Sequence record: PQ567651.1
DNA: 64,000 nt
Source: Escherichia phage cardinal
Direction: 5' to 3' (one strand)
Made by a program: the position numbers and the translations under genes. Under the pieces are notes generated by a model, which worked only from the letters and a program-made list of their open reading frames with translations, was not told where the DNA came from and made no database searches. This document shows positions 1,663-21,308 of the stretch, piece after piece (within the stretch, counting starts at the first letter, position 1; the number at the start of each line of letters is the position of its first letter).

Positions 1663-2031
1663 ATGAGGGTCACACGCTACGTTAGAAGTGAAACAATAGA
1701 TGGAAGCATAATGTATGCTTTCTACGATGATAAAACTTTTTGTTCTGCGTTCTATGAAGAAGACTTATCTACGGAATGGCAACAAATCATCTTCTTACTT
1801 GACATTTTGAAAAGAAGAGATAACTTTGAAGGTATTGAGTGGACAGTGGGAAGCAAAGTTATCATTCCAGGCTTAAGCAAACATGAGTTGCTTGACTTAG
1901 ATTGCAAACTTTGTAATTATCAATTCTCAAAACGTTTACCATTAGAAAGACAGTTAGGAGTTGAGATTCATGTTGACTTGGGCGATGGAGTATCCTATAC
2001 TCTCAACAAGCATAGTGCTGACGTTAATTAG
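1663..2031 (+). CDS. hypothetical protein
   Basis: track ORF, RBS AGGAGGG upstream; no recognisable motif. Confidence 0.55.
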   Translation: MRVTRYVRSETIDGSIMYAFYDDKTFCSAFYEEDLSTEWQQIIFLLDILKRRDNFEGIEWTVGSKVIIPGLSKHELLDLDCKLCNYQFSKRLPLERQLGVEIHVDLGDGVSYTLNKHSADVN

Positions 2032-2097
2032 TGGGATCACAAAGTGCGTCACGAGCATTTGCGATTGTTTAACACATTTTAAACAAAGGAAAAATAA

Positions 2098-2295
2098 ATG
2101 AATCAAACTATACAAACAAGCTATAGAGTAATTCTTGGTGAGTTCCATGTTGTTAAGTCAACATTGAATTATGAAGAAGCTAAAGAGAATTTCTTGCTTT
2201 GGGTTGAAGCATTCTCTGAAGTTGAAAAGGTAAGTTACAATTGTGTAACTTTGACTGCTGATCACGTACCTGTTTTGGAGTTTATTAAAAAATGA
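2098..2295 (+). CDS. hypothetical protein
   Basis: track ORF colinear with neighbours. Confidence 0.5.
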   Translation: MNQTIQTSYRVILGEFHVVKSTLNYEEAKENFLLWVEAFSEVEKVSYNCVTLTADHVPVLEFIKK

Positions 2296-2531
2296 AAAAA
2301 GAAATTTTAACTGATGTAACATATTCTTGTATTAGCAAAGGTGGTTTATATCGTGTAGTTGGCTTTCCTAAACCAGCGGGTGTATCTAAAGTATTTGATC
2401 CTGTTGTGATCTACGAAGATGTAAGGACTGGTCAACAGTATTGGCGATTCCAGCAAGATTTCTTACACCGTATGGAGGTTGTTGATGGCGAAAACACCGA
2501 AGAAGCGATCCGTAACAAAGCACGCATCTAA
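2292..2531 (+). CDS. hypothetical protein
   Basis: track ORF, start overlaps previous stop (ATGA). Confidence 0.5.
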   Translation: MKKEILTDVTYSCISKGGLYRVVGFPKPAGVSKVFDPVVIYEDVRTGQQYWRFQQDFLHRMEVVDGENTEEAIRNKARI

Positions 2532-2820
2532 AGATGGGGCGGCAAAGGCCGCTCCTAAGAAACAAAAATTTGACACAGAGGCTTTTGTCTTTGATACTCC
2601 AATAGAAAAGATAGAAGAAGCTCTTGCTAAATTTGAAGAACGTGAAGCAGATCCTATGGCAGATCCTTTCACAGAAGATGAATTGTATTGGTTTGGCTGG
2701 TGGGTTTTGAATCTACCAGAAGCTAAAAAACGAGGAATGAAATCAGTTCCTATTTGTGCAAAAGAGTCGGCTGTGTTAGGTTTATACGAGAAGCCTAAAA
2801 GAAGGAGCAAAAAGAAATGA
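2485..2820 (+). CDS. hypothetical lysine-rich protein
   Basis: ATG at 2485 preceded by GGAGG; track ORF 2479 uses TTG; basic N- and C-termini. Confidence 0.5.
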   Translation: MAKTPKKRSVTKHASKDGAAKAAPKKQKFDTEAFVFDTPIEKIEEALAKFEEREADPMADPFTEDELYWFGWWVLNLPEAKKRGMKSVPICAKESAVLGLYEKPKRRSKKK

Positions 2821-3095
2821 GAAAAACCTACCTGAAGTGTTTGTCTGTTGTGCAAAATGAATGGTATTCAGGTTTGCTGACAGCAGGTAAGAAATATGAA
2901 GTGCTCAATAAACCAGGGGCAAGGTTTTCATTAATTAAGAACGATGAAGGCACTGAAATGCTTATTTCAGTTGCAGATTCTGTGTATGGTACTTTTGAGT
3001 TTGTCTATGAACATGCACCAATTATTCTTGAATACAGCGGTACAAACAAACCTTACACAGCTTTAGATGTGATCAACAACAAAAGGAATAAATAA
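2817..3095 (+). CDS. hypothetical protein
   Basis: track ORF, colinear. Confidence 0.5.
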   Translation: MRKTYLKCLSVVQNEWYSGLLTAGKKYEVLNKPGARFSLIKNDEGTEMLISVADSVYGTFEFVYEHAPIILEYSGTNKPYTALDVINNKRNK

Positions 3096-3286
3096 TGTTC
3101 CTTATTTATTCAGGTAAAGCCAAATACATGCAAGGTGTAAAGCGTGTAGAAGTAGTAGATACTGTAACTATAGGAAAATCCTTTATTCTTTATCTGTTTT
3201 ATGTCAATGGAGAAAGATTTGCTGTTTCTAAGCAATTGGTAGATAAAGGTAAAACTTGGAAAGAAGAGAAACAGGAAGGGGGTTGA
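3095..3286 (+). CDS. hypothetical protein
   Basis: track ORF, colinear. Confidence 0.45.
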   Translation: MFLIYSGKAKYMQGVKRVEVVDTVTIGKSFILYLFYVNGERFAVSKQLVDKGKTWKEEKQEGG

Positions 3287-3288
3287 TA

Positions 3289-3630
3289 GTGGCTAAAATT
3301 CTTTGGTTAGACGATTTAAGAGATCCTAAAGATTATGGTTATGAGGATGCCATTTGGTTAAAATCTTTTGAGGATTGGTTATCTTTTGTTTCAGATGAAG
3401 ATAATTTCAATAATATCTCAGAGATACACTTCGATAATGATCTTGGAGAAGATCAAGAAGGATATCATGCGTTCTTAGACGTAGAATGTATGTTGTACGC
3501 GGGTGAATGGGATGCTCTTAAAACTATCTATGTTCATACATCAAATCCTTCTGCTGCTGGTAAATATATGTTAGCTAAGGAAAATTTTATTTCATCCTAT
3601 GGTATTGAAATTAAACGTGTTAACTATTAA
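3289..3630 (+). CDS. hypothetical protein
   Basis: GTG start after GGAAGGGGG RBS; track ORF starts at upstream TTG 3256. Confidence 0.5.
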   Translation: MAKILWLDDLRDPKDYGYEDAIWLKSFEDWLSFVSDEDNFNNISEIHFDNDLGEDQEGYHAFLDVECMLYAGEWDALKTIYVHTSNPSAAGKYMLAKENFISSYGIEIKRVNY

Positions 3631-3788
3631 GTAGGTATTATGCATTACTCAGTTTGGTCAGAGCAAGAAGAGGATGAAGGGCATTTTATCTATAAAGAGG
3701 AAGAAAACTGTAGCGATACGAGTAATGATCTTTTACTTCCTGATTACAGTTTTTTCGCTGATAGATTAAAAGAGTATGGGGAAAATTG

Positions 3789-4148
3789 ATGTGCGCTACT
3801 AATCAACATGATATTTGTTACCAACCTCTTACTTGGATTGGTGAGGATCACTATGCTCAACGTGTTATAGTCTGCGCTGCGAATAAGTATATTCTCAATA
3901 ATGGCGAAGAGTTAATTATTCCTTGTGTTAGGCATGCAAATCCTGTACTATCTGCACAACTTAATGTTTTAAAAGATGCAGGATTGATTGATAAACTGTT
4001 TTGCTTACCTGATAATCAAGGGTTTATTGATCAGTATTATAACTGGTGGAGTCGCAAAGATGCTTATATCATTGCAGATAACGCCAAACAAATTAACTAC
4101 GAAAGAAATGGTCACAACAGTGAACTATTCAGCGAGGGATTATACTAA
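3789..4148 (+). CDS. hypothetical protein
   Basis: track ORF; ATG at 3789. Confidence 0.5.
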   Translation: MCATNQHDICYQPLTWIGEDHYAQRVIVCAANKYILNNGEELIIPCVRHANPVLSAQLNVLKDAGLIDKLFCLPDNQGFIDQYYNWWSRKDAYIIADNAKQINYERNGHNSELFSEGLY

Positions 4149-4699
4149 TGTTTATTACAAGTGATTTGCATTTTATGCACAAACGTATCCGAGAGTTTGC
4201 TCCTGAATATCGCCCGTGGGAAGATATGGAGCATATGACAGAAGCACTGATCGAAGCATGGAATAAATGTGCCACAACACCAGGAGTAAAGATGTACCAT
4301 CTTGGGGACTTCTGTTTCGGGACTGAAGAAGATACCCGTAAGATTGCTTCCCGTCTCCAAGGGGATATTACTTACTGTGTTGGGAACCATGATTATAGTA
4401 AACACAGAAAAGTGCTTGCAGAGTATGGAGAAGTTGTGTATTATGACGAAGTGAAATATCAGAAGCTGTTCTTCGTCTTAAGCCATTACCCTATGGCTGC
4501 CTGGAATAAACAAGGGCATGGATCAATCATGCTACACGGACACTCTCACGGATCATTCCCTGATCATTTGTATGGGAAAATGTTGGATGTTGGTTGGGAT
4601 GCACACGGGAAAATCTTGCATTTTGACGAAATCATCTCTATTATGGATAAGCGTGATATTGTTGTTGTAGACCATCATAAGATAATCAAAGGAGATTAA
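4148..4699 (+). CDS. calcineurin-type metallophosphoesterase
   Basis: MPP motifs SDLHF, GDFCFG, GNHD, HGHSHG in order. Confidence 0.7.
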   Translation: MFITSDLHFMHKRIREFAPEYRPWEDMEHMTEALIEAWNKCATTPGVKMYHLGDFCFGTEEDTRKIASRLQGDITYCVGNHDYSKHRKVLAEYGEVVYYDEVKYQKLFFVLSHYPMAAWNKQGHGSIMLHGHSHGSFPDHLYGKMLDVGWDAHGKILHFDEIISIMDKRDIVVVDHHKIIKGD

Positions 4700-4700
4700 G

Positions 4701-5633
4701 GTGGCTAAGTTCAATTGTGATGACCTGATTGCAAAAGGTTTAGTGCATAAAAAAGAAGTTAAATCTGGAGAGTATGCTGGTCTTGCTGTGCTTAAATACA
4801 AAAACAATGTATTCTGGGATAATTTGTGGAACGTTGACAAACGACTTTTAGATTGTCGTGGGTTGGTTGTTGACTCAGAAGATAATGTTGTTATTTGGCC
4901 TTTTACTAAAATCTTTAATCGTTTTGAAAATGGTACAGATCTTCCAGCAGACGAAATTGTAGATGCTGTCCGTAAAGTAAACGGTTTTATGGCATCTGTA
5001 GGTGTGTACAAAGGGAAACTTGTTGTATCAACAACAGGGAGCCTAGAATCAGATTTCGCAATTATGGCAAAGAACCGTATTGTTTCCGAGTGTGACGACA
5101 TAGAGTATTTCATTAAGTGGACAGAGAGTGCAAAAGCAACTTTTCTTTTTGAAATCTGTGATCCTTCTGATCCACATATTGTCGAAGAAGAACCAGGCGC
5201 ATACTTAATTGGAGCAAGAATTCAAAATCTTGATGGAACAAGTTTCATGTTACCTGAAGGTGTTCTTGATGGGATTGCATCTATTACAAAGTTTAAACGT
5301 CCTGAAGTTTATCCGATGATTAAATTTTCAGATGTTGTTGAAATGTCTAAACATTGTAAACACGAAGGGTTTGTTGTTCGTGAAACAAACTATCCGTTTA
5401 ACTTACTCTTAAAGATTAAGTCACCATACTATCTTGCTAAGAAGTTCCTTATGCGTGGTGGCAATAAGAAGTGGGATATGATTTGGGACAACCCAAACAA
5501 TGCTAAACAAATTGTTGACGAAGAATATTATACTTTGTTAGAATGGCTTCGAAATAACTTTACGAAGGTTCAATGGGCTGCTCTAGATCCACAAGAGCGA
5601 CGTAAAGAAATAGAAAACTTCTTTGGAGGCTAA
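4701..5633 (+). CDS. RNA ligase, T4 Rnl1-like
   Basis: GTG start after AGGAGA; DCRGLVVD...FTKIFNRFENG and KVNG (motif I KxNG) and KIKSPYY resemble recalled T4 Rnl1 segments. Confidence 0.6.
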   Translation: MAKFNCDDLIAKGLVHKKEVKSGEYAGLAVLKYKNNVFWDNLWNVDKRLLDCRGLVVDSEDNVVIWPFTKIFNRFENGTDLPADEIVDAVRKVNGFMASVGVYKGKLVVSTTGSLESDFAIMAKNRIVSECDDIEYFIKWTESAKATFLFEICDPSDPHIVEEEPGAYLIGARIQNLDGTSFMLPEGVLDGIASITKFKRPEVYPMIKFSDVVEMSKHCKHEGFVVRETNYPFNLLLKIKSPYYLAKKFLMRGGNKKWDMIWDNPNNAKQIVDEEYYTLLEWLRNNFTKVQWAALDPQERRKEIENFFGG

Positions 5634-6038
5634 ATGAAACAACTTATCATTTTACGTGGTGTTTCAGGCGCAGGTAAATCTACAGTAGCAGAAATTATTT
5701 CTGAAGGTTATTGGCCTATCTGTGAGGCAGATCAATATCATTACACAGAAAACGGTGTTTACGATTGGAAGCCAGAAAATGTAGGTAAAGCACACTCATG
5801 GTGTCAGAGTATTGTTCGTGATGCTATGGCATCTAATATTAAAAAGATTATTGTCTCTAACACTTCAACCACAGAGAAAGAACTTAAACCTTATTTTACT
5901 ATTGCTGAAGAGTTTGGTTATCAAGTTATCTCTTTAGTTGTTGAAAATAGGCACGGTAACGACTCAATTCATGAGGTTCCACAACATATTCGTGATCAGC
6001 AAGAGAAACGTCTTCGCAGTTCACTTAAGCTACAATAA
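5634..6038 (+). CDS. polynucleotide kinase-like P-loop kinase (T4 Pnk kinase domain-like, no HAD phosphatase domain)
   Basis: N-terminus MKQLIILRGVSGAGKSTVA (Walker A) closely resembles T4 Pnk MKKIILTIGCPGSGKSTWA. Confidence 0.6.
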   Translation: MKQLIILRGVSGAGKSTVAEIISEGYWPICEADQYHYTENGVYDWKPENVGKAHSWCQSIVRDAMASNIKKIIVSNTSTTEKELKPYFTIAEEFGYQVISLVVENRHGNDSIHEVPQHIRDQQEKRLRSSLKLQ

Positions 6039-6047
6039 GGAGAGTGT

Positions 6048-6368
6048 ATGGAAATTTATTCTGGTGAAGGTAAGTATTTTACAGTAGTCGATAATGGTGA
6101 AATTATTATTTATCGCTACGGAAGTGAGTGGAGGAACGAGACAGGAGACGGCTATATCTTATCTTTGCTCAGTTTGATTAATGATCTTACGGAAGAACTT
6201 GAAGAAACAAAACGTTCGTATGATGATCAAGTAGATTCATTAGAAAACATTATTTCAGATCTAAACGAAGAAGTTTCTTGTTTGAATGAACAAGTTTCAG
6301 AATTAACACTGGAATGTGAAGATTTAGGTGATGTTATTGCAGATTTAAATGAACGTCTTAAGGATTAA
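6048..6368 (+). CDS. hypothetical acidic coiled-coil protein
   Basis: track ORF; heptad-like acidic C-terminus. Confidence 0.5.
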   Translation: MEIYSGEGKYFTVVDNGEIIIYRYGSEWRNETGDGYILSLLSLINDLTEELEETKRSYDDQVDSLENIISDLNEEVSCLNEQVSELTLECEDLGDVIADLNERLKD

Positions 6369-6371
6369 TAT

Positions 6372-6596
6372 ATGAGTACAGCTATCTATGTTAAAGGTGT
6401 AAGCGAAGATCAACAAATGTTATTCTCATTTGGTGAGAATACTGAAATGGAAGATATGTTTAATGATATCCTTGATGCCCTTTCTTCGGAAGGGTTCACA
6501 ATGATTACATACTTTATGGCAACATCTTCTGAATACGTTGATACAGATCTTGAAGACTTAATGGAAGAAATTCAAACTCTTGTGTATAATTGGTAA
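6372..6596 (+). CDS. hypothetical acidic protein
   Basis: track ORF, colinear. Confidence 0.5.
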   Translation: MSTAIYVKGVSEDQQMLFSFGENTEMEDMFNDILDALSSEGFTMITYFMATSSEYVDTDLEDLMEEIQTLVYNW

Positions 6597-6604
6597 GGGT
6601 AACT

Positions 6605-6793
6605 ATGACATTTATTGAAGAACTAACGAGAATTGCAAACGCACCTAACAGTAGCGAAGATCCTTACTTTATGGTGGATGATTACACTGGTGGTAATATT
6701 GATGATGCCTATGAACTAGGCAGACTACACGGTGAAATTGAAATGGCTAAATGGGTTCTTTCGCAACTGGAGGTTAAAGATGAAACAAACTAA
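6605..6793 (+). CDS. hypothetical protein
   Basis: ATG at 6605 within track ORF 6590..6793. Confidence 0.45.
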   Translation: MTFIEELTRIANAPNSSEDPYFMVDDYTGGNIDDAYELGRLHGEIEMAKWVLSQLEVKDETN

Positions 6794-7895
6794 TCCTACA
6801 TTATACGGCAAAACTTCTACAGGTAAAATTAAACAATGGTCAGTCTATACCGAAGGTAGTGTTGTAACTGTTGCTCATGGTCAATTAGGTGGAAAGATTA
6901 CTAGCAAATCTTATACAGCAGAACCTAAAAATATTGGTCGCTCAAATGAAACAACAGCAGAAGAACAAGCTGAAATAGAAGCTCTTGCCAAATGGACAAA
7001 GCAACTTAAGAGTGGGTATTATAAAACAAAAGAGGAAGCTGAAAATCATGTTCCTTCCACACCCATGAAATGTCAGGATTATAAAGATTATGCTGATCGT
7101 GTTTTGTTCCCAGGTTATGCACAATATAAATTGAATGGTCTACGTTCAATGATTAACATGCAAGGTGAATGTTTATCTAAAGCTGGGGAGGTATATAAAC
7201 TTCCACCTCACTGGGAAGAAATTCCAACCTTCATTAAAGAAGTAGTTGGTCATCCTCTTGACGGTGAAGTTTTTGCTGGTTTGGGTGTCCTTAGCCTTCA
7301 ACAAATTAATAGTGCGTGGAAAAAGCATAATGCTAACACACCACTTCTTAAATACTATGTATATGATGTTCCTGTGGCATCTGTACCATTTGAGAAGAGG
7401 GTTCAAGTTTTGGCTGCGCTAAAAGAAGTTGTTGAAGATAAAGGTTTAGATGAACTTATTTGTGTAGTACATACAGAGTACATTGAAAACCAAGAACAGT
7501 TTGATGCTTTCTATGCAAAAGCTCTACGTGAGAAAGCGGAAGGTGTGGTGTATCGTAACGCACAAGGTGTTTACGAGTTTGATAAACGTTCTTATGATGT
7601 TATTAAACGTAAACCACGACAGACGCTTGAAGTTAAAGTGGTAAGTGCAAAGCGTGATAAAAATGGTGACGGGGTATTGACAGGCGAGATGGAAAATGGT
7701 AAAGTAGTCGAATTCCTGATGCGTAAGGATTCAGATGAAACCATTAACTATCGTAAAGCAGAAAATGCCGAAATGTTAATTGGTAAATTTGTTGAGATTG
7801 AGTATGAAGAGTTTTCCGATGGTGGAATACCTACGAAACCAACAGGTGTCCGTTTACGTAAGATGATTCCAGGTACTTGGGAACCAGCAGAGTAA
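6780..7895 (+). CDS. ATP-dependent ligase-like nucleotidyltransferase (DNA or RNA ligase)
   Basis: ATG after GGAGG; candidate motif I YKLNGLR (KxNGxR); track ORF starts upstream at 6732. Confidence 0.5.
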   Translation: MKQTNPTLYGKTSTGKIKQWSVYTEGSVVTVAHGQLGGKITSKSYTAEPKNIGRSNETTAEEQAEIEALAKWTKQLKSGYYKTKEEAENHVPSTPMKCQDYKDYADRVLFPGYAQYKLNGLRSMINMQGECLSKAGEVYKLPPHWEEIPTFIKEVVGHPLDGEVFAGLGVLSLQQINSAWKKHNANTPLLKYYVYDVPVASVPFEKRVQVLAALKEVVEDKGLDELICVVHTEYIENQEQFDAFYAKALREKAEGVVYRNAQGVYEFDKRSYDVIKRKPRQTLEVKVVSAKRDKNGDGVLTGEMENGKVVEFLMRKDSDETINYRKAENAEMLIGKFVEIEYEEFSDGGIPTKPTGVRLRKMIPGTWEPAE

Positions 7896-7903
7896 GAGAT
7901 AAT

Positions 7904-8083
7904 ATGGTATTAGTAACAGTTCTTATGATGTTAATTGCTATTGCAATTATAATGTTAGCCTCGTTTCCAGTGGACAAATGGTACTGCAATTTTTGTAGAT
8001 TTGTTGTTTTCCTCTGTGCTGGGGTGTATATGGGCGAATCGGTAGTTCGCATTAGTGTTTTGTTAGAACAATATTTTAAATAA
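7904..8083 (+). CDS. hypothetical small membrane protein
   Basis: hydrophobic stretch VLVTVLMMLIAIAIIMLA; weak RBS. Confidence 0.35.
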   Translation: MVLVTVLMMLIAIAIIMLASFPVDKWYCNFCRFVVFLCAGVYMGESVVRISVLLEQYFK

Positions 8084-8092
8084 GGAGAAACA

Positions 8093-8815
8093 ATGATCGA
8101 GAATTTTTTCAAACAAGTAAAAGTGGACAATAGCTTCTTTATCAAAGCTGCCGATCAAATTGTTGCTTGGAATGCTAAGGCACGTGGTGGAGTAACCCCA
8201 GAATTTACTCAAGAGATGTTTGAAGCTCAACTTTCTTTTGTACGAGAAGAACTTAAAGAGTTTCAAGCAGCAGCACAGGAAAATGATCACGTTGAATTAC
8301 TTGATGCAGCAGCAGATATTTTTGTGGTAGCCTCCTACCTGGCATTTATGTTCTTTGGTAAAGAAGGTGTTGATAAAGCTCTGGAAATGCCGACAGGAGA
8401 TGTTCTGGCAGAAAACATTTACGATGTTATCATTGAATTTGATAAAATGGTAGAAAATGACTTGCAATTTGCCTTAATGTCTCTTACACTTACACGTATG
8501 GCACGAGATACTTTGGTGCGTTCTGTCTATAACGAGAAGAAGGTTATGCGTGAAGTGTTGAATAGCAATGAGTCCAAGTATCCTACCAAGAAGCAACTCC
8601 TGGCTATTTGGGAAACTAAGGATATTATTGAAGCTCTTGAAAAAGAGTGCGATGCTATCGAGATGCGAAGCAAAGATCGTGCAGAAGGTTCTTATACTGG
8701 GGTACATGCTGTATATAACGAAGTTCAAAAGGTGTACGTATTCTTTGATGACAAAGGTAAAATTATGAAACCATCTACCTTTGTTAAACCTAATATCGCA
8801 GCAATCATTGCTTAA
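8093..8815 (+). CDS. hypothetical protein, possibly MazG-like NTP pyrophosphohydrolase
   Basis: EELKEF...ELLDAAADIFVVASYLA resembles the MazG-type all-alpha NTP-PPase motif; weak. Confidence 0.4.
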   Translation: MIENFFKQVKVDNSFFIKAADQIVAWNAKARGGVTPEFTQEMFEAQLSFVREELKEFQAAAQENDHVELLDAAADIFVVASYLAFMFFGKEGVDKALEMPTGDVLAENIYDVIIEFDKMVENDLQFALMSLTLTRMARDTLVRSVYNEKKVMREVLNSNESKYPTKKQLLAIWETKDIIEALEKECDAIEMRSKDRAEGSYTGVHAVYNEVQKVYVFFDDKGKIMKPSTFVKPNIAAIIA

Positions 8816-8822
8816 GAAATAA

Positions 8823-8845
8823 AGCCCCTTCGGGGGCTTATTGGA
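8823..8845 (+). terminator. hairpin agcccc-ttcg-ggggct after gene end
   Basis: GC stem with UUCG loop right after stop; weak T-tract. Confidence 0.4.
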
Positions 8846-8851
8846 GGTATT

Positions 8852-9130
8852 ATGTTAACAGCAGAAGATATCTTTAAACACGGTTTGCGTCAGGTAATCA
8901 AATCCTTGAAGAATGCAGGTATTGAAGATATCACACAGGAAATTGTTGGTTTAGAAAAAGAAGGTAAGAGAACAGAGTTTAAGTTTTACACAGAAGAACA
9001 GTGGCTGAGTAATCCGCAAAACAAAGCTAATGAAGCTGTTAGTCTGTTTGGTAAATCTTATAAAGGATTTAAATATCCTGATCATATTGTCGAATATGAT
9101 GGTGTAAAATATTTTGTAGTTATTATTTGA
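8852..9130 (+). CDS. hypothetical protein
   Basis: track ORF, RBS GGAGG. Confidence 0.5.
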   Translation: MLTAEDIFKHGLRQVIKSLKNAGIEDITQEIVGLEKEGKRTEFKFYTEEQWLSNPQNKANEAVSLFGKSYKGFKYPDHIVEYDGVKYFVVII

Positions 9131-9140
9131 GGAGAAAACT

Positions 9141-10025
9141 ATGTTTGCTAAAAATTTCAAATCTTGCGTAACCCTGATTTCTGGTGATGGTCTGTCTATT
9201 TCCGCACTGAACACAGTAACAGACAAACCGCTGGATTTTGTTGTGGCACAGGGTCAACAAGCACATACCATTGGTCTTGTTCGTTTTGAAGATGATGGTT
9301 CCTATGTAAAAGTGTTCTCTGGTTTAGAGGTTATTAAAGTAGGGCAATCTGTTAAGAAAGTTAACAAGAAAAAAGTTAAACGCATTCTTAATGAAAAACT
9401 CCAAGAGATGGAACAAGAGTTTATTGCTGCAAATCCTACTAAAGAATTCTTCTTGGACAAAGAAAGTAAAAAAGCAATTGAGGCTGATATCGTGTTTTCT
9501 CTGCTCCCAGAAACAGAGGCAGATGATTTCTATAACTATGTTGTTGTAGACACTGAAAACAGTATTACCTACGTTCTTAATGGTTCTAAGAAAATTAGTG
9601 AAGATATTGCTGTATTTCTTCGTGAGGTGTTGGGTACTTTCCCAGTCCTGCCGTTTAGTGTACACGAAGAAGCCATTATTAAAGGTTTTGATACCATCTT
9701 AGAAGAACATGAGGCTGAACGACTGACCCTGGGTAATTATATTAAACTTGAAGATTCGGAAGGTGTGGTTGTATGGAGTAAAGAGTCCCTTTATGAATCT
9801 CGTGCAGTAGAACTTATGGAAGATGGTAAGCACGTCGTTGCCATTGGTCTGGAATATGACGGCTTCGTTAACTTTATTGTTGATAAAGAATTTAAGTTGA
9901 GTGGTATTAAATTCCCTAAATACTTTAATGATGAAGAAGGATCTTTTGAAGCATCTGTCCTTCTGTGCTTTAATGAAATCCGTGGTATTATGCAAGACCT
10001 TATCAAGTCAACTATTCAAAAATAA
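9141..10025 (+). CDS. RdgC-like recombination-associated protein
   Basis: FSLLPETE and LGTFPVLPF segments resemble RdgC conserved regions. Confidence 0.5.
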   Translation: MFAKNFKSCVTLISGDGLSISALNTVTDKPLDFVVAQGQQAHTIGLVRFEDDGSYVKVFSGLEVIKVGQSVKKVNKKKVKRILNEKLQEMEQEFIAANPTKEFFLDKESKKAIEADIVFSLLPETEADDFYNYVVVDTENSITYVLNGSKKISEDIAVFLREVLGTFPVLPFSVHEEAIIKGFDTILEEHEAERLTLGNYIKLEDSEGVVVWSKESLYESRAVELMEDGKHVVAIGLEYDGFVNFIVDKEFKLSGIKFPKYFNDEEGSFEASVLLCFNEIRGIMQDLIKSTIQK

Positions 10026-10099
10026 TACTTGACTTACTAATTTAATATGTGTTAATATGCCTACCTACTCAGTTAGGTGGGCTTTTAAGGAGACACACC

Positions 10100-10312
10100 A
10101 TGAAAAAACTTCTTGTCGGTTTACTTTTAGTAATCAGTTCTTATTCTTATGCTGGTCAAATAACTTTAATTAATTCTGGAGAACAAGTTTCTGGAAGTAC
10201 AAAATACTGTTTTTACTCTAACGGTATGTACGACAAGGTTATAGAGGTTTCTGCAAGTCGTCAGTGTCCCTACACACGAACATTCTCAACAGAGAGTTCA
10301 GATGATGAATAG
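10100..10312 (+). CDS. small secreted protein with signal peptide
   Basis: ATG after AAGGAGA; MKKLLVGLLLVISSYSYA signal-peptide-like N-terminus. Confidence 0.5.
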   Translation: MKKLLVGLLLVISSYSYAGQITLINSGEQVSGSTKYCFYSNGMYDKVIEVSASRQCPYTRTFSTESSDDE

Positions 10313-10404
10313 GAGGTAATATTAGCGGTTACATTTTAATCCAACCGGAAGACCTGCACAAATATGTTGACGAGAACACAATTCTTGCAATAGACTACGA
10401 TCAA

Positions 10405-11439
10405 GTGGCGTTCCAAGCGGCTTCAGCTTTAGAACAAAGAAAAATCCACGCTGTACACAAGGCTTCCGGTAATGTAAAAGAGTTTGAAACAAGAACAGAT
10501 TTTTGGGGTAAATCTTCAAAAAATATTGGAGGATGGTTAGGAGCACTTAACGCGCAACGCGAAGCTGCTGGTAAGAAGTTGTTCTCCAAGGAAGATTTTG
10601 AAATAAAAGATGTTCAAATAGTCCCAGAGAATATTTCTTTTACGTTTCAAGCTGCAAAGACAAAAATAACCCAGATGGTGGATCACCTAAAACTTCAAAA
10701 GTATTGCGGTGTCATCGGGGTAGGAAAAACCTTCCGGCATTCTTTCAAAATGCCAAAAGAATATAAATCAGAACGATCAGATTTAAGACCAATCCAATTA
10801 TCAGATACTAAAGATTATCTAGTTGAAAAACATAACGGTGACGTTGTTACTGGTATTGAGGCAGATGATGCTTTAGAAATCTATGGATATGCAGGGTATA
10901 AAGCCTACAAGGAAACTGGTAAGTTTTCTCATATTGTAGCATCTATCGACAAAGATAGCTTACACACACCAAGTTTACTCTTTAACTTTTATAAAGAGGA
11001 TGGTGTTTATAAAAATCCTTGTGTTATTCTGATTGATGAATCTATCGGTGATATCTGGATCGTAGAAAAAGGTAAGAAAAAAGAAGTTAAGGGTTGGGGT
11101 AGTTACTGGTTAGCTTATCAAATGCTAATGGGCGATAAGACAGATAGTATTCGACCTTACCAAGATTTCGATGTTAAGTTTGGAGATATTACTTGCTTTA
11201 ATCTTATTTCCAAATGTAAAACACAGGCTGAACTTTTTCAGACAGTTAAAGATCAGTATTATGAATGGTTCCCAGATGGCGTTAAATTTACTTCTTGGGA
11301 TGGTGAAGAAGTAGAAATGACAACTGATGAATGGATAGAGACAATTTTTCAGTTGGTATATATGAAACGTTGGGCGAATGATGAAACAACTTTTGAAAGT
11401 ATGCTACAAGCATATATTTCAGAGCAGGAGGAACATTGA
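10405..11439 (+). CDS. RNase H / 5'-3' flap exonuclease (T4 rnh-like); true start probably upstream near 10321
   Basis: GIEADDALEIYG and LMGDKTDSIRP (H3TH-like) motifs; in-frame upstream extension encodes ILAIDYDQVAF resembling T4 RNase H ICLIDFSQIAL. Confidence 0.65.
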   Translation: MAFQAASALEQRKIHAVHKASGNVKEFETRTDFWGKSSKNIGGWLGALNAQREAAGKKLFSKEDFEIKDVQIVPENISFTFQAAKTKITQMVDHLKLQKYCGVIGVGKTFRHSFKMPKEYKSERSDLRPIQLSDTKDYLVEKHNGDVVTGIEADDALEIYGYAGYKAYKETGKFSHIVASIDKDSLHTPSLLFNFYKEDGVYKNPCVILIDESIGDIWIVEKGKKKEVKGWGSYWLAYQMLMGDKTDSIRPYQDFDVKFGDITCFNLISKCKTQAELFQTVKDQYYEWFPDGVKFTSWDGEEVEMTTDEWIETIFQLVYMKRWANDETTFESMLQAYISEQEEH

Positions 11440-12398
11440 GTAAATTAACAGACGAACAGAAAGCCTTGATTGTATCTATGAAAGCACAAGGTTATTCTTC
11501 GCGTAAGATTGCACAAGAGGTGTTGGGAAGTTCTACTAAGAAGAGCACAGTAAATGATTACTTAGCTCGTGTAAATTCACCACATCGCGGTGCTCCGCAA
11601 GATAAAGGTGGGCCAGTAATTAAAATTATTGACGTAGAGACAGCACCGGAGATTGTGTATAGCTTCTCACGTTTCAAAGCCTTTATTGCACCTGAACAAG
11701 TTATTCGTCGAGGTTACTTGCTTTCCTATTCCTCTGCTGATTTAGAAACAGGGGAAGTAGAAGGTAAGAACCTTAGCAATTACCCTTTGTTTGACATAGA
11801 TCATACAGATGATTGGGAATTATGTCAAGATCTCTGGCACTTGCTTGATGATGCAGATATTGTGATCGCGCACAATGGTATTAAGTTTGATAAGGCTTAT
11901 ATTAACCAACGTTTTGCTTTTCACGGTATGGAGCCACCATCACATTACGTTGTAATTGATACACTCAAGGCAGCTAAGAAGCAGTTTGCACTACCTTCTA
12001 ATGCGATTAAAGAAATGTGTTTGTATTTTGATACAGAAAACTTTAAACTTGATAATGAAGGTTTTCCTTTGTGGAAAGCATGTTGTGAAGGAGATAGACA
12101 TGCCTTCTTCCGTATGCAAACATACAACGATGGTGATGTTGTTTCTCTTCGAGATCTTTACATCAAACTTCGTGCATGGATTCCACAACATCCTAACGTA
12201 TCTGCATTCTATGACGATGAAAAACTTCGTTGTCCTCGTTGCGGTAAAGAGCACCTTGAAGTTGTTCCTGGTAAGGTTTACACAACAGCGGTTAGTACAT
12301 TCCAAGTGCTAAGATGCACATCATGTAATAGCCTGTCTCGTGGACGTGTTAATTTGCGTAGCAAAGAGAAGCGTGTAAACACTGTTATTGGAATTTAA
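11436..12398 (+). CDS. DEDD-family 3'-5' exonuclease with N-terminal HTH and C-terminal Cys pairs
   Basis: TTG start after AGGAGG; IIDVETAPE (Exo I), IAHNGIKFD (Exo II), C-terminal CPRCG...CTSCN. Confidence 0.5.
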   Translation: MSKLTDEQKALIVSMKAQGYSSRKIAQEVLGSSTKKSTVNDYLARVNSPHRGAPQDKGGPVIKIIDVETAPEIVYSFSRFKAFIAPEQVIRRGYLLSYSSADLETGEVEGKNLSNYPLFDIDHTDDWELCQDLWHLLDDADIVIAHNGIKFDKAYINQRFAFHGMEPPSHYVVIDTLKAAKKQFALPSNAIKEMCLYFDTENFKLDNEGFPLWKACCEGDRHAFFRMQTYNDGDVVSLRDLYIKLRAWIPQHPNVSAFYDDEKLRCPRCGKEHLEVVPGKVYTTAVSTFQVLRCTSCNSLSRGRVNLRSKEKRVNTVIGI

Positions 12399-12403
12399 TA
12401 AAA

Positions 12404-12428
12404 AAGGGGCGAAAGCCCCTTTATTTTT
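12404..12428 (+). terminator. rho-independent terminator ggggc-gaaa-gcccc + T-tract
   Basis: aaaaaggggcgaaagcccctttattttt immediately after stop. Confidence 0.7.
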
Positions 12429-12437
12429 GGAGGATTT

Positions 12438-12839
12438 ATGACTACAGCACTGGATATTCAAATTGATGGTGATCACTACAAACGTATGCGTATGCAACCT
12501 TTGGAACTTGCATATCTAATTGGTGCAACTCCTTGTTTCACTAAGTTAGCTAAGTATGCTTGTCGAAACAAAGGTGATCGTGTGATCAACCTAAACAAAG
12601 CGATTCACGTTATTCATATTGAAAAAGAATTAAGTGATAAGTATTACAATATGTTGTATGAAGCCTACCCTAACTTAAAAAATCCTGTAAAAATTGAGTT
12701 AGCTAATCAGCTAATTGATTTATACACAGACGATGATCTTGTTCGTAAGGCTTTAAAAGCAATGTACAAAGGTAAGTATATTGAAGCAGCAGATGCTATT
12801 GAAACATTGAAGGAGAGTGTAGATGGCTTCTCACGGTAA
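12438..12839 (+). CDS. hypothetical protein
   Basis: track ORF, RBS GGAGG. Confidence 0.5.
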   Translation: MTTALDIQIDGDHYKRMRMQPLELAYLIGATPCFTKLAKYACRNKGDRVINLNKAIHVIHIEKELSDKYYNMLYEAYPNLKNPVKIELANQLIDLYTDDDLVRKALKAMYKGKYIEAADAIETLKESVDGFSR

Positions 12840-13017
12840 ACAATACGGAGAGGGTGAAGTATATAAAATATACAATAAACGTGGAGATAAACTCCTATAT
12901 ACAATCACAATCCCAGAAAACATGTGTAAAGCTGGTTTAGACCGTATGCTTTTCTTTAAATATAACATTCCACCAGGAGATTATGTAGCTAAAAAGGTGA
13001 GCACTATTGGAAAATAA
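12823..13017 (+). CDS. hypothetical protein
   Basis: track ORF, overlaps neighbours by a few codons. Confidence 0.45.
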   Translation: MASHGKQYGEGEVYKIYNKRGDKLLYTITIPENMCKAGLDRMLFFKYNIPPGDYVAKKVSTIGK

Positions 13018-14774: not shown

Positions 14775-15746
14775 ATGACAAACTCTATTTCAGCAAAAAT
14801 TATTGCACACTCTCAAACATCTGAAGGTAAGGATATTGTTACCTTTGAACTTGAATATCCTCGAATCATTCACTCTGAATTGATGACGCATCGTTTGTTT
14901 TCTCGTAATGCCGCATCAAGTCGAGCTATCCCTGTTAAAACTCTAATTGAAATGGTACGGCAATCTCCAGCACGTCCTTATCGTTTTGGTGCTAACCAAC
15001 CAGGTATGCAAGATAAAGGCACAGATCACGATGCCCTGATTGATGCAGGTTACACTGCAAAAGAATGGTGGGACTTGGCTGCACTAAGTGCTGCACGTTT
15101 TGCAGAAGAGTTTGCCCTTGCTGGTTATCATAAACAGGTTGCAAACCGCCTACTAGAACCATTCCAGCGTATGAAGACTGTAGTAACCACTACAGAGCTA
15201 GAAAACTTCTTGTGGTTGCGCGTAGATGCTGATGCAGATCCTACTATTGAGGCTCTTGCTAAAGAAATTAAAAAACTGTATGAATCTTCTGAACCATATC
15301 TTCTTTTCCCAGGGGAATGGCATACACCTTACGTTAATCGTGATCGAGATCCAGAAACTGGCATGATCCGTTATTTCTTGGGTGAAACCTTCTCCAACGA
15401 GAAAATGTTGACAGAAGAGGAAGCAAAAGCTATTTCAGCTTCTTGTTGCGCTCAGGTAAGTTATCGTAAATTGAATGATACTAAAGATAAAGCATTGGAC
15501 ATCTATTCTCGTTTGCTGTCTGGACAAAAGGTACATGCATCTCCGTTTGAACACCAGGCAACGCCAATGAAAGAAATGGATTTGTCAGGATTAAAACAAC
15601 AGAAAGGTGGTATTAATATTCCTCCGTTCCCTACTTCTTGGGAAGAAGGTATTACACACATGGATCGTAAACATCGTTTGTGGAGTGGAAACTTCTGTGG
15701 TTGGATTCAACATCGTCAACTTTTGACTAACCATACAAAATGGTGA
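14775..15746 (+). CDS. thyX: flavin-dependent thymidylate synthase ThyX
   Basis: ThyX signature ELMTHRLFSRNAASSRAIP (RHR...S...R). Confidence 0.85.
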   Translation: MTNSISAKIIAHSQTSEGKDIVTFELEYPRIIHSELMTHRLFSRNAASSRAIPVKTLIEMVRQSPARPYRFGANQPGMQDKGTDHDALIDAGYTAKEWWDLAALSAARFAEEFALAGYHKQVANRLLEPFQRMKTVVTTTELENFLWLRVDADADPTIEALAKEIKKLYESSEPYLLFPGEWHTPYVNRDRDPETGMIRYFLGETFSNEKMLTEEEAKAISASCCAQVSYRKLNDTKDKALDIYSRLLSGQKVHASPFEHQATPMKEMDLSGLKQQKGGINIPPFPTSWEEGITHMDRKHRLWSGNFCGWIQHRQLLTNHTKW

Positions 15747-16526: not shown

Positions 16527-18791
16527 GTGACTCAGTATCTAAGCAAATCTATCCGTTATGTAACAAAAACAAACGGCAAGAAAGAAGAATTTAATCCAGA
16601 AAAACTTCGTAAATGGTCAGAGTTTGCTGCTGGTAAATTAAATTGGTCTGAAATTGAACTCGAAGCTGTTAAACGTTGTTACGACGGTGTGCCTACTCGT
16701 GATTTACATAAAGCTATGATAGCAGCATGTATTGATAAGAAAGATCAGGCATATAGTGATATGGCAGGTCGGTTACTTCTTGGTATGATTTATAAACAGG
16801 CTCATGGGGGATATCACAATATCCCCTCCCTCCTGGATTTCTACAATATGTCTGTAAGTAAAGGCTATTGGGGAAAAATGGATTATACAGAAGAAGAAAT
16901 TATTGAGATTGGTAAAATTGTCAATCATGATAAAAACCTAACTTATGGTTATTCCGTACTGCGCCAGATGGTTGATAAGTATCTTGTGAAAGATGCGATC
17001 AATGATGTGGTTTTTGAATCACCACAATTTTTATTCATTGGTGTAGCAATGAAGGTAATGGAAATTCAACCAAAAGATCGCAGAGTAGAAGACATTAAAC
17101 GTCTATATACCTACGTAAGTGATCTTAAGATTAATTTACCATCACCTTATTTAACAACGTTGCGTACTAAGATTAAAGGTAGTGCTTCTTGTTGTCTGTT
17201 TAGAGCAGATGATACAGCAGAATCTTTAGCAATTGCTAACTATCTTGCTCATGAATATACATTGAATAATGCAGGTATTGGTGTTAACCTCCAAACCCGT
17301 GCTACAGGACAAGGTGTTAAGAACAACCGTATCGTTCACGGTGGTCTTTTACCATATCTGAAATGGATGGAAACAAGTGTTGGAGCATCAAAACAAGCAA
17401 GCCGTGGTGGAAGTGCAACAGTAACGTTTACAATATTAGAACCTGATTTTGAAGATCTGGTACGTTTGAAAAACCCAACTACTGTTAGTGAAAAACGAGT
17501 AGATAAACTTGATTACTCTATTGTAGTAAACAATGCTTTCCTGCGCCGTGCAGCAAAAGGTAAAGATTGGATGCTAGTCAGTTATGACGAAGCACCAGAA
17601 CTCTATGAGGCGCTTTATAAAAGCGAGGAAGAGTTTGAAGAAGTATATGAAAAAGTTAGTCGCAAACGAATTAAGAAGAAGTTTGTAAAAGCACGAGATC
17701 TTCTGGCAGAAATTATTACACAAAGAGCAGAGACAGGACGTATTTATATGTTCTTTGCGGATAATGCTAATAAGCATACTCCGTTTAAGGATGTTATTTA
17801 TCAGTCCAACTTGTGCCAAGAAATTTTCTTACCTACGAAAGCATTTCACAGTATGACTGATCTTTTCACAGGTGAGAATACAGAAGACCAAGAATTGGCA
17901 TTATGCTTCCTGTCTTCTATTGTAGCTGGTCGTGTTACACCAGAAGAATATGAAGATGTTGCATATTATACCGTTCTAACTATTGATAATGTTATTGAAA
18001 CAATGCAGTATCCGTTTAAACATAACGAAATCACTGCTAAAGCACGTAGGTCTATCGGTGTAGGTATTACAAACCTGGCACATTATCTGGCAAGTAATTT
18101 TGTTACTTATTCAGATCCTTACGGCAAAAAACTAATTCACGAATTAGCAGAAAGACATTATTACTGGTTAGCAAGAGCTTCTCTTCGTTTGGCAAAAGAG
18201 AAAGGTAATGCAGAATGGATGCATAAAACCAAGTGGCCTGAAGGATGGTTGCCTATTGATACCTACGCTAAAGCTGTAGACGATATTGGCAATTTTAAAC
18301 TTAAAATGGATTGGGAAGGTTTACGACAAGATATCATTGCACAAGGTGGTATCCGAAATAGCGTATTAGCAGCTATTGCTCCAAATGAGTCCAGTAGTCT
18401 TGTAAGTAATACGACTAACTCTGTGTATCCTGTACGTGATACTATAGTTTATAAACAAAGCCAAAAGGGTAATGTTCTGTTTATTGTGCCAGACTACGAT
18501 AAACTAAAAGATATTTACCAATCGGCTTGGGATACACCAGATAAAGATATGGCTGAAGCATATGGACTGTTGACTAAATTCTTAGATCAAGGTGCATCAT
18601 GTGATAAGTGGATTGACTATTCTAAGATGGAAGGTGGTCGTTTATCCATTAAATCAGAAATGCAATATATTCTTCAGTTTGCAAAACTTGGTGGTAAATC
18701 TTTGTACTACCTAAATAGCAGAACAAAATCGGCATCCTCACTCGCTCAAGAAGATTCTGAAGACGAGGGGTGTAGCGCCTGTAAAATGTAA
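16527..18791 (+). CDS. nrdA: ribonucleoside-diphosphate reductase large subunit
   Basis: 754 aa; N-terminal ATP-cone-like region, C-terminal Cys pair CSACKM, overall class Ia NrdA organisation. Confidence 0.85.
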   Translation: MTQYLSKSIRYVTKTNGKKEEFNPEKLRKWSEFAAGKLNWSEIELEAVKRCYDGVPTRDLHKAMIAACIDKKDQAYSDMAGRLLLGMIYKQAHGGYHNIPSLLDFYNMSVSKGYWGKMDYTEEEIIEIGKIVNHDKNLTYGYSVLRQMVDKYLVKDAINDVVFESPQFLFIGVAMKVMEIQPKDRRVEDIKRLYTYVSDLKINLPSPYLTTLRTKIKGSASCCLFRADDTAESLAIANYLAHEYTLNNAGIGVNLQTRATGQGVKNNRIVHGGLLPYLKWMETSVGASKQASRGGSATVTFTILEPDFEDLVRLKNPTTVSEKRVDKLDYSIVVNNAFLRRAAKGKDWMLVSYDEAPELYEALYKSEEEFEEVYEKVSRKRIKKKFVKARDLLAEIITQRAETGRIYMFFADNANKHTPFKDVIYQSNLCQEIFLPTKAFHSMTDLFTGENTEDQELALCFLSSIVAGRVTPEEYEDVAYYTVLTIDNVIETMQYPFKHNEITAKARRSIGVGITNLAHYLASNFVTYSDPYGKKLIHELAERHYYWLARASLRLAKEKGNAEWMHKTKWPEGWLPIDTYAKAVDDIGNFKLKMDWEGLRQDIIAQGGIRNSVLAAIAPNESSSLVSNTTNSVYPVRDTIVYKQSQKGNVLFIVPDYDKLKDIYQSAWDTPDKDMAEAYGLLTKFLDQGASCDKWIDYSKMEGGRLSIKSEMQYILQFAKLGGKSLYYLNSRTKSASSLAQEDSEDEGCSACKM

Positions 18792-18798
18792 TGAAACT

Positions 18799-18822
18799 AG
18801 GGGGCTTTGTCCCCCTTTCTTA
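18799..18822 (+). terminator. hairpin aggggg-ctttgt-ccccct + T-rich tail
   Basis: located right after nrdA stop. Confidence 0.5.
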
Positions 18823-18831
18823 AGGAGGAAT

Positions 18832-19167
18832 ATGCCTACATTAGTTGTATTACCTGGAGCAACACCACAAAGACATTGGGGAAATTATACACTGGTAGAT
18901 AGTAAAGATTTTACATTCGATTGGTGTTGCCATTATATTGCAGGTTTTCAATTTTCCAGTGTTGAAATATGGGCTTCCAATGATCCAGAAGCTACCTGGT
19001 ATGCTTTAACCAGGGCAAGATATGATGGAGAGGTTACTGTACTACTCACAAAGAGTGTATGGAACGCATTAGAGAAGGCTTACATAGAGAATGGTATGGA
19101 GAGAAAACACATTGATACAATAAAAGCAATGTGTGATATTGTGGAGGATTTAAATGGCAGCGATTAA
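18832..19167 (+). CDS. hypothetical protein
   Basis: track ORF between nrdA and nrdB. Confidence 0.5.
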   Translation: MPTLVVLPGATPQRHWGNYTLVDSKDFTFDWCCHYIAGFQFSSVEIWASNDPEATWYALTRARYDGEVTVLLTKSVWNALEKAYIENGMERKHIDTIKAMCDIVEDLNGSD

Positions 19168-20239
19168 TTTATACAACGACACTTACAAAGAAGGTTTCTA
19201 CCCTGTATTTTTGGGAGAACAGTTAGGTATTTTTGATTCTATTAACGTAACATACCCAGAAATGCATCGTCTGTACAAACTACAAAAACAGCAAGATTGG
19301 GATGAAAACGAAGTAAACTTAGATCAGACACGAAAAGATTTCGTAGCTTGTTCTAAAAGCAACTATGATGTTATGATCAAAAACCTATCCTTCCAATGGG
19401 AAAATGATTCACTTGCTAAATCAATCATCACTTTGTTTGCACCATTTTTAAGCAACAACGAAGCATGTGCAATGATGATGAAGCAATCAGAAATGGAAGT
19501 TTTACACGCTTTGACATATTCTGAAATTATTCGTCAGTGTATCCCTAATCCAAATGAAGTTATCGATCAGATTATGGAGAACGAAAGAATCTTCCAGAGG
19601 ATGGGTATAGTTGAAGAGATAATGAGTGATCTGGCAGAGGCAGGGCATAAATATGCTCTAGGTCTGATTGAGAAGGATGATAACCTTCGTCTACTGATTC
19701 TGAAAGGAATGATTGCACTTATCGGTCTGGAAGGCATTCAATTCATATCATCTTTTGCTGCAACATTTGCCTTAGCAGAGCAGCAATTGTTTGTAGGTGC
19801 AGCTAAACTCATTCAAAAAATTATGTTGGATGAACTATTGCACGTTAAAATGGATTATGCTATTATTGATGCACTGCTGAAAGATCCTGTTTGGAGAAAA
19901 GTATACGAAGACAATATCGACGTTCTGACAGAAATTCTTGACACGGTAGTTGGACAAGAGGAAGATTGGTGTGACTATCTGTTTAGTGAAGGAAGGGTTA
20001 TCGTTGGTGGTAACGCAGAGTTGTTCAAACTTTGGGTTTACTTCAATGCCGCGCCTATCTATCGCAGACTGAAAATGAAACACAAATTCCGTGCACCGAA
20101 GAAAAGTCCACTGCCTTGGATGGATGTTTGGTTAAATCCAGATCAAATTCAAGCAGCAGCACAGGAGATCCAAATTACAGCTTACAAACTGAATTCAGCA
20201 AATAAAGATGTAAGTGATGACGAGGAGTTAGACTTCTAA
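19154..20239 (+). CDS. nrdB: ribonucleoside-diphosphate reductase small subunit
   Basis: 361 aa; position after nrdA and iron-ligand-like E/H-containing helices; C-terminal acidic tail DDEELDF. Confidence 0.8.
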   Translation: MAAINLYNDTYKEGFYPVFLGEQLGIFDSINVTYPEMHRLYKLQKQQDWDENEVNLDQTRKDFVACSKSNYDVMIKNLSFQWENDSLAKSIITLFAPFLSNNEACAMMMKQSEMEVLHALTYSEIIRQCIPNPNEVIDQIMENERIFQRMGIVEEIMSDLAEAGHKYALGLIEKDDNLRLLILKGMIALIGLEGIQFISSFAATFALAEQQLFVGAAKLIQKIMLDELLHVKMDYAIIDALLKDPVWRKVYEDNIDVLTEILDTVVGQEEDWCDYLFSEGRVIVGGNAELFKLWVYFNAAPIYRRLKMKHKFRAPKKSPLPWMDVWLNPDQIQAAAQEIQITAYKLNSANKDVSDDEELDF

Positions 20240-21110: not shown

Positions 21111-21308
21111 ATGATGCTAGATCAACTGATCAATGCTCCTCGCGTAACAGTAAGTCCAAAAACATTTGCATCACTTTTAGAAGATGCTAGAGAGGTTTAT
21201 AACTTTACTGAAGAAGAGATTCCTGTTCCTGTTGAAAAAGGTTCCAGATGGTTGTTTTATGAAGGTATTATTTTTACTGAAGGGAATAATTGGAAGGAGA
21301 CTAAATGA
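21111..21308 (+). CDS. hypothetical protein
   Basis: ATG after AAGGAGG within track ORF 21018..21308. Confidence 0.45.
   Translation: MMLDQLINAPRVTVSPKTFASLLEDAREVYNFTEEEIPVPVEKGSRWLFYEGIIFTEGNNWKETK

Follow-up and report, generated by a model that had tools for sequence, protein, structure and literature searches.

The gene at positions 6780-7895 (plus strand) of a 64,000-nucleotide stretch of Escherichia phage cardinal (sequence record PQ567651.1; this whole stretch is referred to as the window) very probably encodes the ATP-dependent DNA ligase of the phage, a protein of three domains (amino acids (aa) 1-95, 96-280 and 281-371). An earlier note on this DNA had described a 371-aa protein with the sequence YKLNGLR at this place, and translation of the open reading frame (ORF) bears this out. 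It begins with ATG, ends with a TAA stop codon at 7893-7895 and encodes 371 aa, in which YKLNGLR occupies residues 116-122 (KLNGLR, residues 117-122, nucleotides (nt) 7128-7145). In an alternative, longer reading the ORF begins with GTG at 6732 and encodes 387 aa; the start at 6780 is preferred because it agrees with the annotation of phage phi92 and is preceded by a ribosome-binding site (Table 1).

When the gene was compared with a phage collection by megablast, 120 records were detected, and in 118 of these the match extends over 80% or more of the gene. Top matches (96-98.5% nt identity) were found in Justusliebigvirus and phi92-like Escherichia myophages, and the window itself belongs to such a phi92-like phage (Justusliebigvirus, 97-98.5% nt identity). 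Positions 1780-12895 of the window are collinear with an 11-kb stretch of phi92 (97.9% identity), where the orthologous gene 091 has the same boundaries and ribosome-binding site and carries the annotation 'ATP-dependent DNA ligase', like its counterparts in most relatives. The gene is already known and named in dozens of near-identical genomes, and gp88 of phage rV5, the same gene as the orthologue phi92 gp091, was described as the DNA ligase of that phage with a PRK09125 domain (PMC3606486). In a comparison with phi92, 22 codons of the gene differ synonymously and 9 non-synonymously (35 nt changes, 25 of them at third positions), a pattern that indicates purifying selection. None of the differences falls in a motif.

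With Pfam DNA_ligase_A_M (PF01068; threshold 26.2 bits) the protein scored 43.9 bits (aa 96-278, profile positions 2-204 of 204), and in PHROGs it was assigned to phrog_114, 'ATP-dependent DNA ligase' (4.8e-75). A database search yielded 328 homologues, the best 120 of which are 45-97% identical and many of which are located on phage-sized contigs; all counts of conservation given below were obtained from alignments of 36 and 121 sequences of the family. Among the sequences in the PDB, the ligase encoded by African swine fever virus (ASFV) was closest, with E=1e-7 for the single sequence and 1.7e-23 for the family profile, and the profile also matched Lig E (5e-18) and the Chlorella virus ligase (1.5e-15). 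Given the matches to PF01068, phrog_114 and the ASFV ligase, KxNG is much more than a random hit, and they support the proposal of the earlier note, a ligase-like covalent nucleotidyltransferase.

That proposal was built on motif I. The protein also has motifs III, IIIa, IV, V and VI, so that the observation named in the note as refuting the proposal, a lack of nucleotidyltransferase motifs other than KxNG, did not arise. In the profile alignment every motif aligns with those in the ligases of Chlorella virus, Lig E and ASFV, matching them residue for residue. Motif I (KIDGIR) of the Chlorella virus enzyme contains Lys27, its known catalytic residue. In all 121 sequences K117, G120 and R122 of motif I, D161 and E163 of motif III, Y195 of motif IIIa, E254 and G255 of motif IV as well as K276 and K278 of motif V are invariant. 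D196 of motif IIIa is conserved in 119/121; in motif VI, K353 is present in 121/121 and R360 in 120/121, the remaining sequence being gapped at this position. The stretch S172-L173-Q174 is similarly constant, with L173 and Q174 in 121/121 and S172 in 120/121.

A structure model of the ligase was built with AlphaFold2 using the alignment of 36 sequences (mean predicted local distance difference test (pLDDT) 93, predicted template modelling score (pTM) 0.80). When it was compared with the PDB by Foldseek, the top three matches were closed complexes of ASFV ligase with DNA (E ~1e-25, query-based template modelling score (TMq) 0.78-0.79, ~21% identity), in which all three domains were matched. Further matches were to Lig E and to the T4, Chlorella virus, Prochlorococcus, archaeal, LigD and human ligases. 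Two-domain ligases reached a TMq of just 0.58-0.60, and the extra likeness to the ASFV enzyme is therefore due to the N-terminal domain. The C-terminal domain of the model is beta-rich and superposes on the OB domains of ligases. The best 50 matches were all DNA ligases and included neither RNA ligases nor capping enzymes. An mRNA capping-type guanylyltransferase might have been expected from the layout of a nucleotidyltransferase plus an OB domain and from the Kx(D/N)G motif, both of which capping enzymes share. However, no capping-enzyme family of Pfam was matched either and, to our knowledge, bacterial mRNAs are not capped, so that this reading can practically be dismissed. A DNA ligase is what the family membership, the motifs and their conservation, the predicted fold and the orthology to annotated genes all show.

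The earlier note had considered the choice between a DNA ligase and an Rnl2-type enzyme to be undecidable from sequence. As an Rnl2-type or other RNA ligase, the protein would work in RNA repair together with its neighbours. In favour of this reading, an Rnl1-like gene, with a phosphoesterase gene on one side and a P-loop kinase gene on the other, ends 1.15 kb upstream; in addition, motif I of the protein departs from KxDG, as motif I of some RNA ligases also does. However, three small unrelated genes lie between the ligase gene and the RNA-repair genes, and no RNA-ligase family of Pfam was detected at E<=0.1, whereas DNA_ligase_A_M was above its threshold. The protein also ends in a motif VI-bearing OB fold that is missing from Rnl2, and its 50 best structural matches are confined to DNA ligases. 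On these grounds an RNA ligase was rejected as very unlikely, and the question is decided for the DNA ligase; the existing annotation agrees.

Several points weigh against the assignment as an ATP-dependent DNA ligase. The best match in NCBIfam was the Lig E-type model PRK09125, 'DNA ligase' (1.1e-18), with a score of 67 against a cut-off of 200 bits, and all NCBIfam matches were far below the curated cut-offs; the protein therefore does not qualify as an equivalog of a curated bacterial ligase. Pfam DNA_ligase_OB_2 matched aa 327-360 weakly (15 bits, threshold 28). The searches for ligases covered 64 kb of a genome of ~148 kb, and the use of ATP, the sealing of nicks and the range of substrates would be those expected by analogy with the known chemistry of the family.

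Other ligases were sought in the window as well. A phmmer search with the ligase against all 161 ORFs (stop to stop, 80 aa or longer) returned the ligase itself only, with no second DNA-ligase paralogue found among them, and no other credible match to motif I was obtained when the window was scanned with a regular expression. In the protein itself, domain Ia, Zn finger, HhH and BRCT of the NAD-dependent LigA type were not seen; it has 371 aa compared to ~650 and contains an adenylation domain of the ATP type only, and LigA structures were not among the top Foldseek matches. A full-length LigA-type ligase is absent from the 64 kb, where the sole ORF of more than 500 aa is NrdA; a split ligase, or one in another part of the genome, may still exist.

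If the enzyme acts like other members of its family, Lys117 of motif I would attack the alpha-phosphate of ATP to form ligase-adenosine monophosphate (AMP), the AMP would then be moved to the 5'-phosphate at the nick, and attack of the 3'-OH would seal the nick. The WGR-like N-terminal domain, the nucleotidyltransferase domain and the OB domain would together encircle the nicked duplex, as they do in the DNA-bound ASFV ligase. For infection we infer a role in the joining of Okazaki fragments and in the sealing of nicks that arise from recombination and repair.

Asparagine in motif I

In motif I the ligase carries Asn119 where KxDG ligases have Asp. Most DNA ligases strongly conserve this Asp, whose counterpart in human LIG1, Asp570, is salt-bridged to Arg871 (PMC6344480). 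Both observations would fit a catalytically impaired or repurposed ligase homologue in which Asp of motif I has been changed to Asn. However, Asn is found at this position in 109/121 homologues and Asp in 12/121, every other catalytic residue is invariant, and the divergence from phi92 has the pattern of purifying selection. Since 109 of the 121 homologues carry Asn, the KxNG form is the normal state of this ligase clade and not a defect.

The ASFV ligase provides a direct precedent. Its motif I is KRNGVR, Asn153 is one of four unusual residues at the nick site, and the enzyme is active and ATP-dependent; in multiple mutants containing N153D the activity is much below that of the wild type (PMC6344480). 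Because this Asn153-bearing ligase is active, Asn in motif I is compatible with full ligase chemistry, and an impaired enzyme is hardly to be expected in the phage. Two of the four 'unique' ASFV nick-site residues are common to both ligases, Asn119 corresponding to Asn153 and Leu173 to Leu211; in place of Leu402-Gln403 the phage protein has Thr352-Lys353.

Residue 352 is equivalent to Leu402 of ASFV ligase and to Arg871 of human LIG1. Positions 119 (nt 7134-7136) and 352 (nt 7833-7835) covary in the 121 homologues, the combinations being N-T (106), D-L (9), N-Q (3), D-Q (2) and D-T (1). This covariation may reflect a contact at the nick or purely shared ancestry, and the data do not separate the two.

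The N-terminal domain and the WGR fold

WGR is the fold by which PARP1-3 sense DNA breaks. Residues 1-95 of the ligase did not match any Pfam family, and the threshold of Pfam WGR (PF05406) was not reached; this family was matched weakly by 3/28 homologues (best E=0.011) and not at all by the copy in the window. When a profile of the N-terminal domain was compared with the PDB, the best match was the N-terminal domain of ASFV ligase (E=0.0018, residues 38-75 versus 74-111), followed by the Bacteroides fragilis protein 2ra8 (E=0.0047), in which the matched segment is a true Pfam WGR domain (67 bits). In the ASFV domain, the beta7-alpha3 loop together with helix alpha3 is the counterpart of the conserved stretch K50-N51-x-G53-x-x-N56-x-T58-T59-x-x-x-Q63-A64, which includes Gln63, the equivalent of ASFV Gln98, which contacts a DNA phosphate. 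The alpha/beta domain of the phage ligase is homologous to residues 1-120 of the ASFV enzyme. Because of the profile matches to the ASFV domain and to the WGR segment of 2ra8 and because of the shared conserved stretch, we assign it as a divergent WGR-type fold of the ASFV type, predicted to bind DNA.

The N-terminal fold of ASFV ligase was termed 'completely novel' in the paper on its structure (PMC6344480). According to a review from 2020 the domain was still unique and the ASFV ligase a singleton, and bacterial ligases with an annotated WGR domain were noted in the same review (PMC7470946); a bacterial or phage origin of the ASFV ligase had been proposed in 2009 (PMC2806865). Our literature search, made in a limited library, yielded no paper tying the ASFV N-terminal domain to WGR or to the phage ligase family, and the link may exist elsewhere; this silence is weak evidence that the connection is new. 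We lean slightly towards the view that the 'unique' N-terminal fold of ASFV ligase, together with Asn153 and Leu211, is ancestral in a large clade of phage ligases (phrog_114, from rV5- and phi92-like phages and others), that the domain is a divergent WGR and that the ASFV ligase descended from a phage-type WGR-ligase. If this is the case, phage enzymes that are easily handled could be used to model how the ASFV ligase clamps DNA and perhaps also its low fidelity.

The phage protein itself is a standard ligase of replication and repair that had already been annotated, and its KxNG is a family trait and no anomaly. Mildly new are the assignment of the N-terminal domain to the WGR fold and the finding that the domain held to be unique to ASFV, along with two of the four nick-site residues, is common to a large family of phage ligases. 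These ligases refine the evolutionary picture of the ASFV enzyme and offer tractable homologues for biochemistry.

Putative RNA-repair genes and the surroundings of the ligase gene

The earlier note had placed an Rnl1-like gene about 1 kb upstream of the ligase gene and had suggested that the phage might encode two ligases. The Rnl1-like gene was found and ends 1.15 kb upstream (Table 1), so that one RNA ligase and one DNA ligase are encoded. Its product matches phrog_562, the family of T4 Rnl1/gp63, and its motif I, KVNGFM (4974-4991), also contains Asn; in phi92 this ligase is called merely hypothetical (gp096). The genes of the metallophosphoesterase, the Rnl1-like ligase and the P-loop kinase abut. 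They look like a split Pnkp-plus-Rnl1 cassette for RNA (tRNA) repair, which would supply as separate genes the three activities for healing and sealing broken RNA. When the three proteins were searched against sequences in the PDB, nothing useful was obtained except for 1xm7, a metallophosphoesterase of unknown function, as a match of the phosphoesterase.

The ligase gene sits in a long block of co-directional genes in the early region, which serve replication, recombination and nucleotide metabolism (Table 1). A scan of 3500-10500 for promoters and terminators gave counts no different from those of shuffled sequence and was uninformative.

Table 1. Genes, domains and motifs in the window, with positions in nt
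Feature	Position	Strand	Evidence or remark
Metallophosphoesterase	4148-4699	+	phrog_547
Rnl1-like RNA ligase	4701-5633	+	Pfam RNA_lig_T4_1, 54 bits (threshold 28.3); phrog_562
134-aa P-loop kinase	5634-6038	+	AAA_33; weak polynucleotide-kinase PHROG match
Ribosome-binding site GGAGG	6769-6773	+	6 nt 5' of ATG; same site annotated for phi92 gene 091
ATP-dependent DNA ligase gene, orthologue of phi92 gp091	6780-7895	+	nt identity, PF01068, phrog_114
N-terminal domain, predicted WGR fold of ASFV-ligase type, aa 1-95	6780-7064	+	
Nucleotidyltransferase (adenylation) domain, aa 96-280	7065-7619	+	Pfam DNA_ligase_A_M; aligned to ASFV, Lig E and Chlorella virus ligases
Motif I KLNGLR, K117 predicted AMP acceptor	7128-7145	+	aligns to KIDGIR (Chlorella virus), KRNGVR (ASFV)
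Motif III LDGEVF (D161, E163)	7257-7274	+	aligns to LDGELY (ASFV), DGE triplet (Chlorella virus)
S172-L173-Q174, L173 equivalent to ASFV Leu211 at the nick	7293-7301	+	alignment to ASFV residues 209-212
Motif IIIa YYVYD	7353-7367	+	aligns to FYVFD (ASFV), YYWFD (Chlorella virus)
Motif IV EGVVYRN	7539-7559	+	aligns to EGAIVRN (ASFV), EGVMIRK (Chlorella virus)
Motif V VIKRK (K276, K278)	7599-7613	+	aligns to LAKLK (ASFV), LLKMK (Chlorella virus)
OB-fold domain, aa 281-371	7620-7892	+	all-beta in model; weak DNA_ligase_OB_2; aligned to ASFV and Chlorella virus OB
Motif VI region PTKPTGVRLR (K353, R360)	7830-7859	+	aligns to IPLQARAVGFR (ASFV), PRFPVFIGIR (Chlorella virus)
MazG-like pyrophosphohydrolase	8093-8815	same as ligase	
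RdgC	9141-10025	same as ligase	downstream
DNA polymerase exonuclease subunit	11436-12398	same as ligase	downstream; phi92 annotation
ThyX-like	14775-15746	same as ligase	downstream
NrdA/NrdB	16527-20239	same as ligase	downstream

Some further observations were made in the window. Between the genes of a small signal-peptide protein and of the polymerase exonuclease subunit lies an ORF of 344 aa (10405-11439, plus strand), the equivalent of phi92 gp085 ('no RBS identified'), for which no Pfam match was obtained at E<=0.001. Within the nucleotide-metabolism block a sugar-nucleotide enzyme of 302 aa is encoded (21305-22213, plus strand), which strongly matched RmlD (dTDP-4-dehydrorhamnose reductase, 1.6e-54) as well as NAD-dependent epimerase/dehydratase families. 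A C-5 cytosine DNA methyltransferase of 329 aa (31285-32274, plus strand; Pfam DNA_methylase, 1.8e-43) presumably serves in anti-restriction or self-modification. On the minus strand, a 465-aa protein (59539-60936) combines five repeats of CapR homology with a T5orf172 domain at its C-terminus. The GC skew is positive from 2 to 34 kb and negative beyond, and ORFs of at least 280 aa are located on the plus strand before ~34 kb and on the minus strand after it; this double switch suggests that ~34 kb is a boundary between convergent transcription modules.

Comparison with known ligases

The nearest known relatives are phi92 gp091 and its orthologues in Justusliebigvirus, Phapecoctavirus and rV5-like phages (rV5 gp88, PVP-SE1 gp110), which are annotated as ATP-dependent DNA ligases and belong to phrog_114. 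With phi92 gp091 the protein shares its 371 aa, boundaries, ribosome-binding site and neighbours at 97% nt identity, and it differs only by substitutions at the level of strains, which change the amino acid in 9 of 371 codons.

Among structurally characterized enzymes, the ASFV ligase (NP419L; PDB 6IMJ, 6IMK, 6IML and 6IMN) has the same three domains, an N-terminal alpha/beta DNA-binding domain, a nucleotidyltransferase domain and an OB domain. The two also have in common KxNG (Asn153, Asn119), the Leu at the nick site (Leu211, Leu173) and the N-terminal pattern KN-G--N-TT---QA (Gln98, Gln63). They differ in that the identity is ~21%, that the N-terminal domain has 95 aa in the phage and 120 in ASFV, and that the OB nick-site pair is Thr352-Lys353 instead of Leu402-Gln403. 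Moreover, the ASFV ligase comes from a eukaryotic virus and is an error-prone enzyme of base-excision repair.

Lig E (PDB 4D05, 6GDR and 8U6X) and the Chlorella virus ligase (2Q2T) could be aligned with the catalytic core from end to end, including all six motifs, with Foldseek E-values of about 1e-17 to 1e-19; in contrast to the phage protein, motif I is KxDG in both, and neither has a DNA-binding domain at the N-terminus. From the bacterial ATP-dependent WGR-NT-OB_2 ligases and the WGR domains of PARP1-3 the phage domain differs in being too divergent for Pfam WGR, and compared with WGR domains it has an additional loop (K50-T59) ahead of the long helix, which is common to the ASFV ligase. 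T4 Rnl2 is, like the phage ligase, a covalent lysine nucleotidyltransferase with a residue other than Asp in motif I. The phage ligase differs from it by an OB domain where Rnl2 has its own type of C-terminal domain, by the lack of a match to RNA-ligase families of Pfam and by the absence of Rnl2 from its top 50 structural matches.
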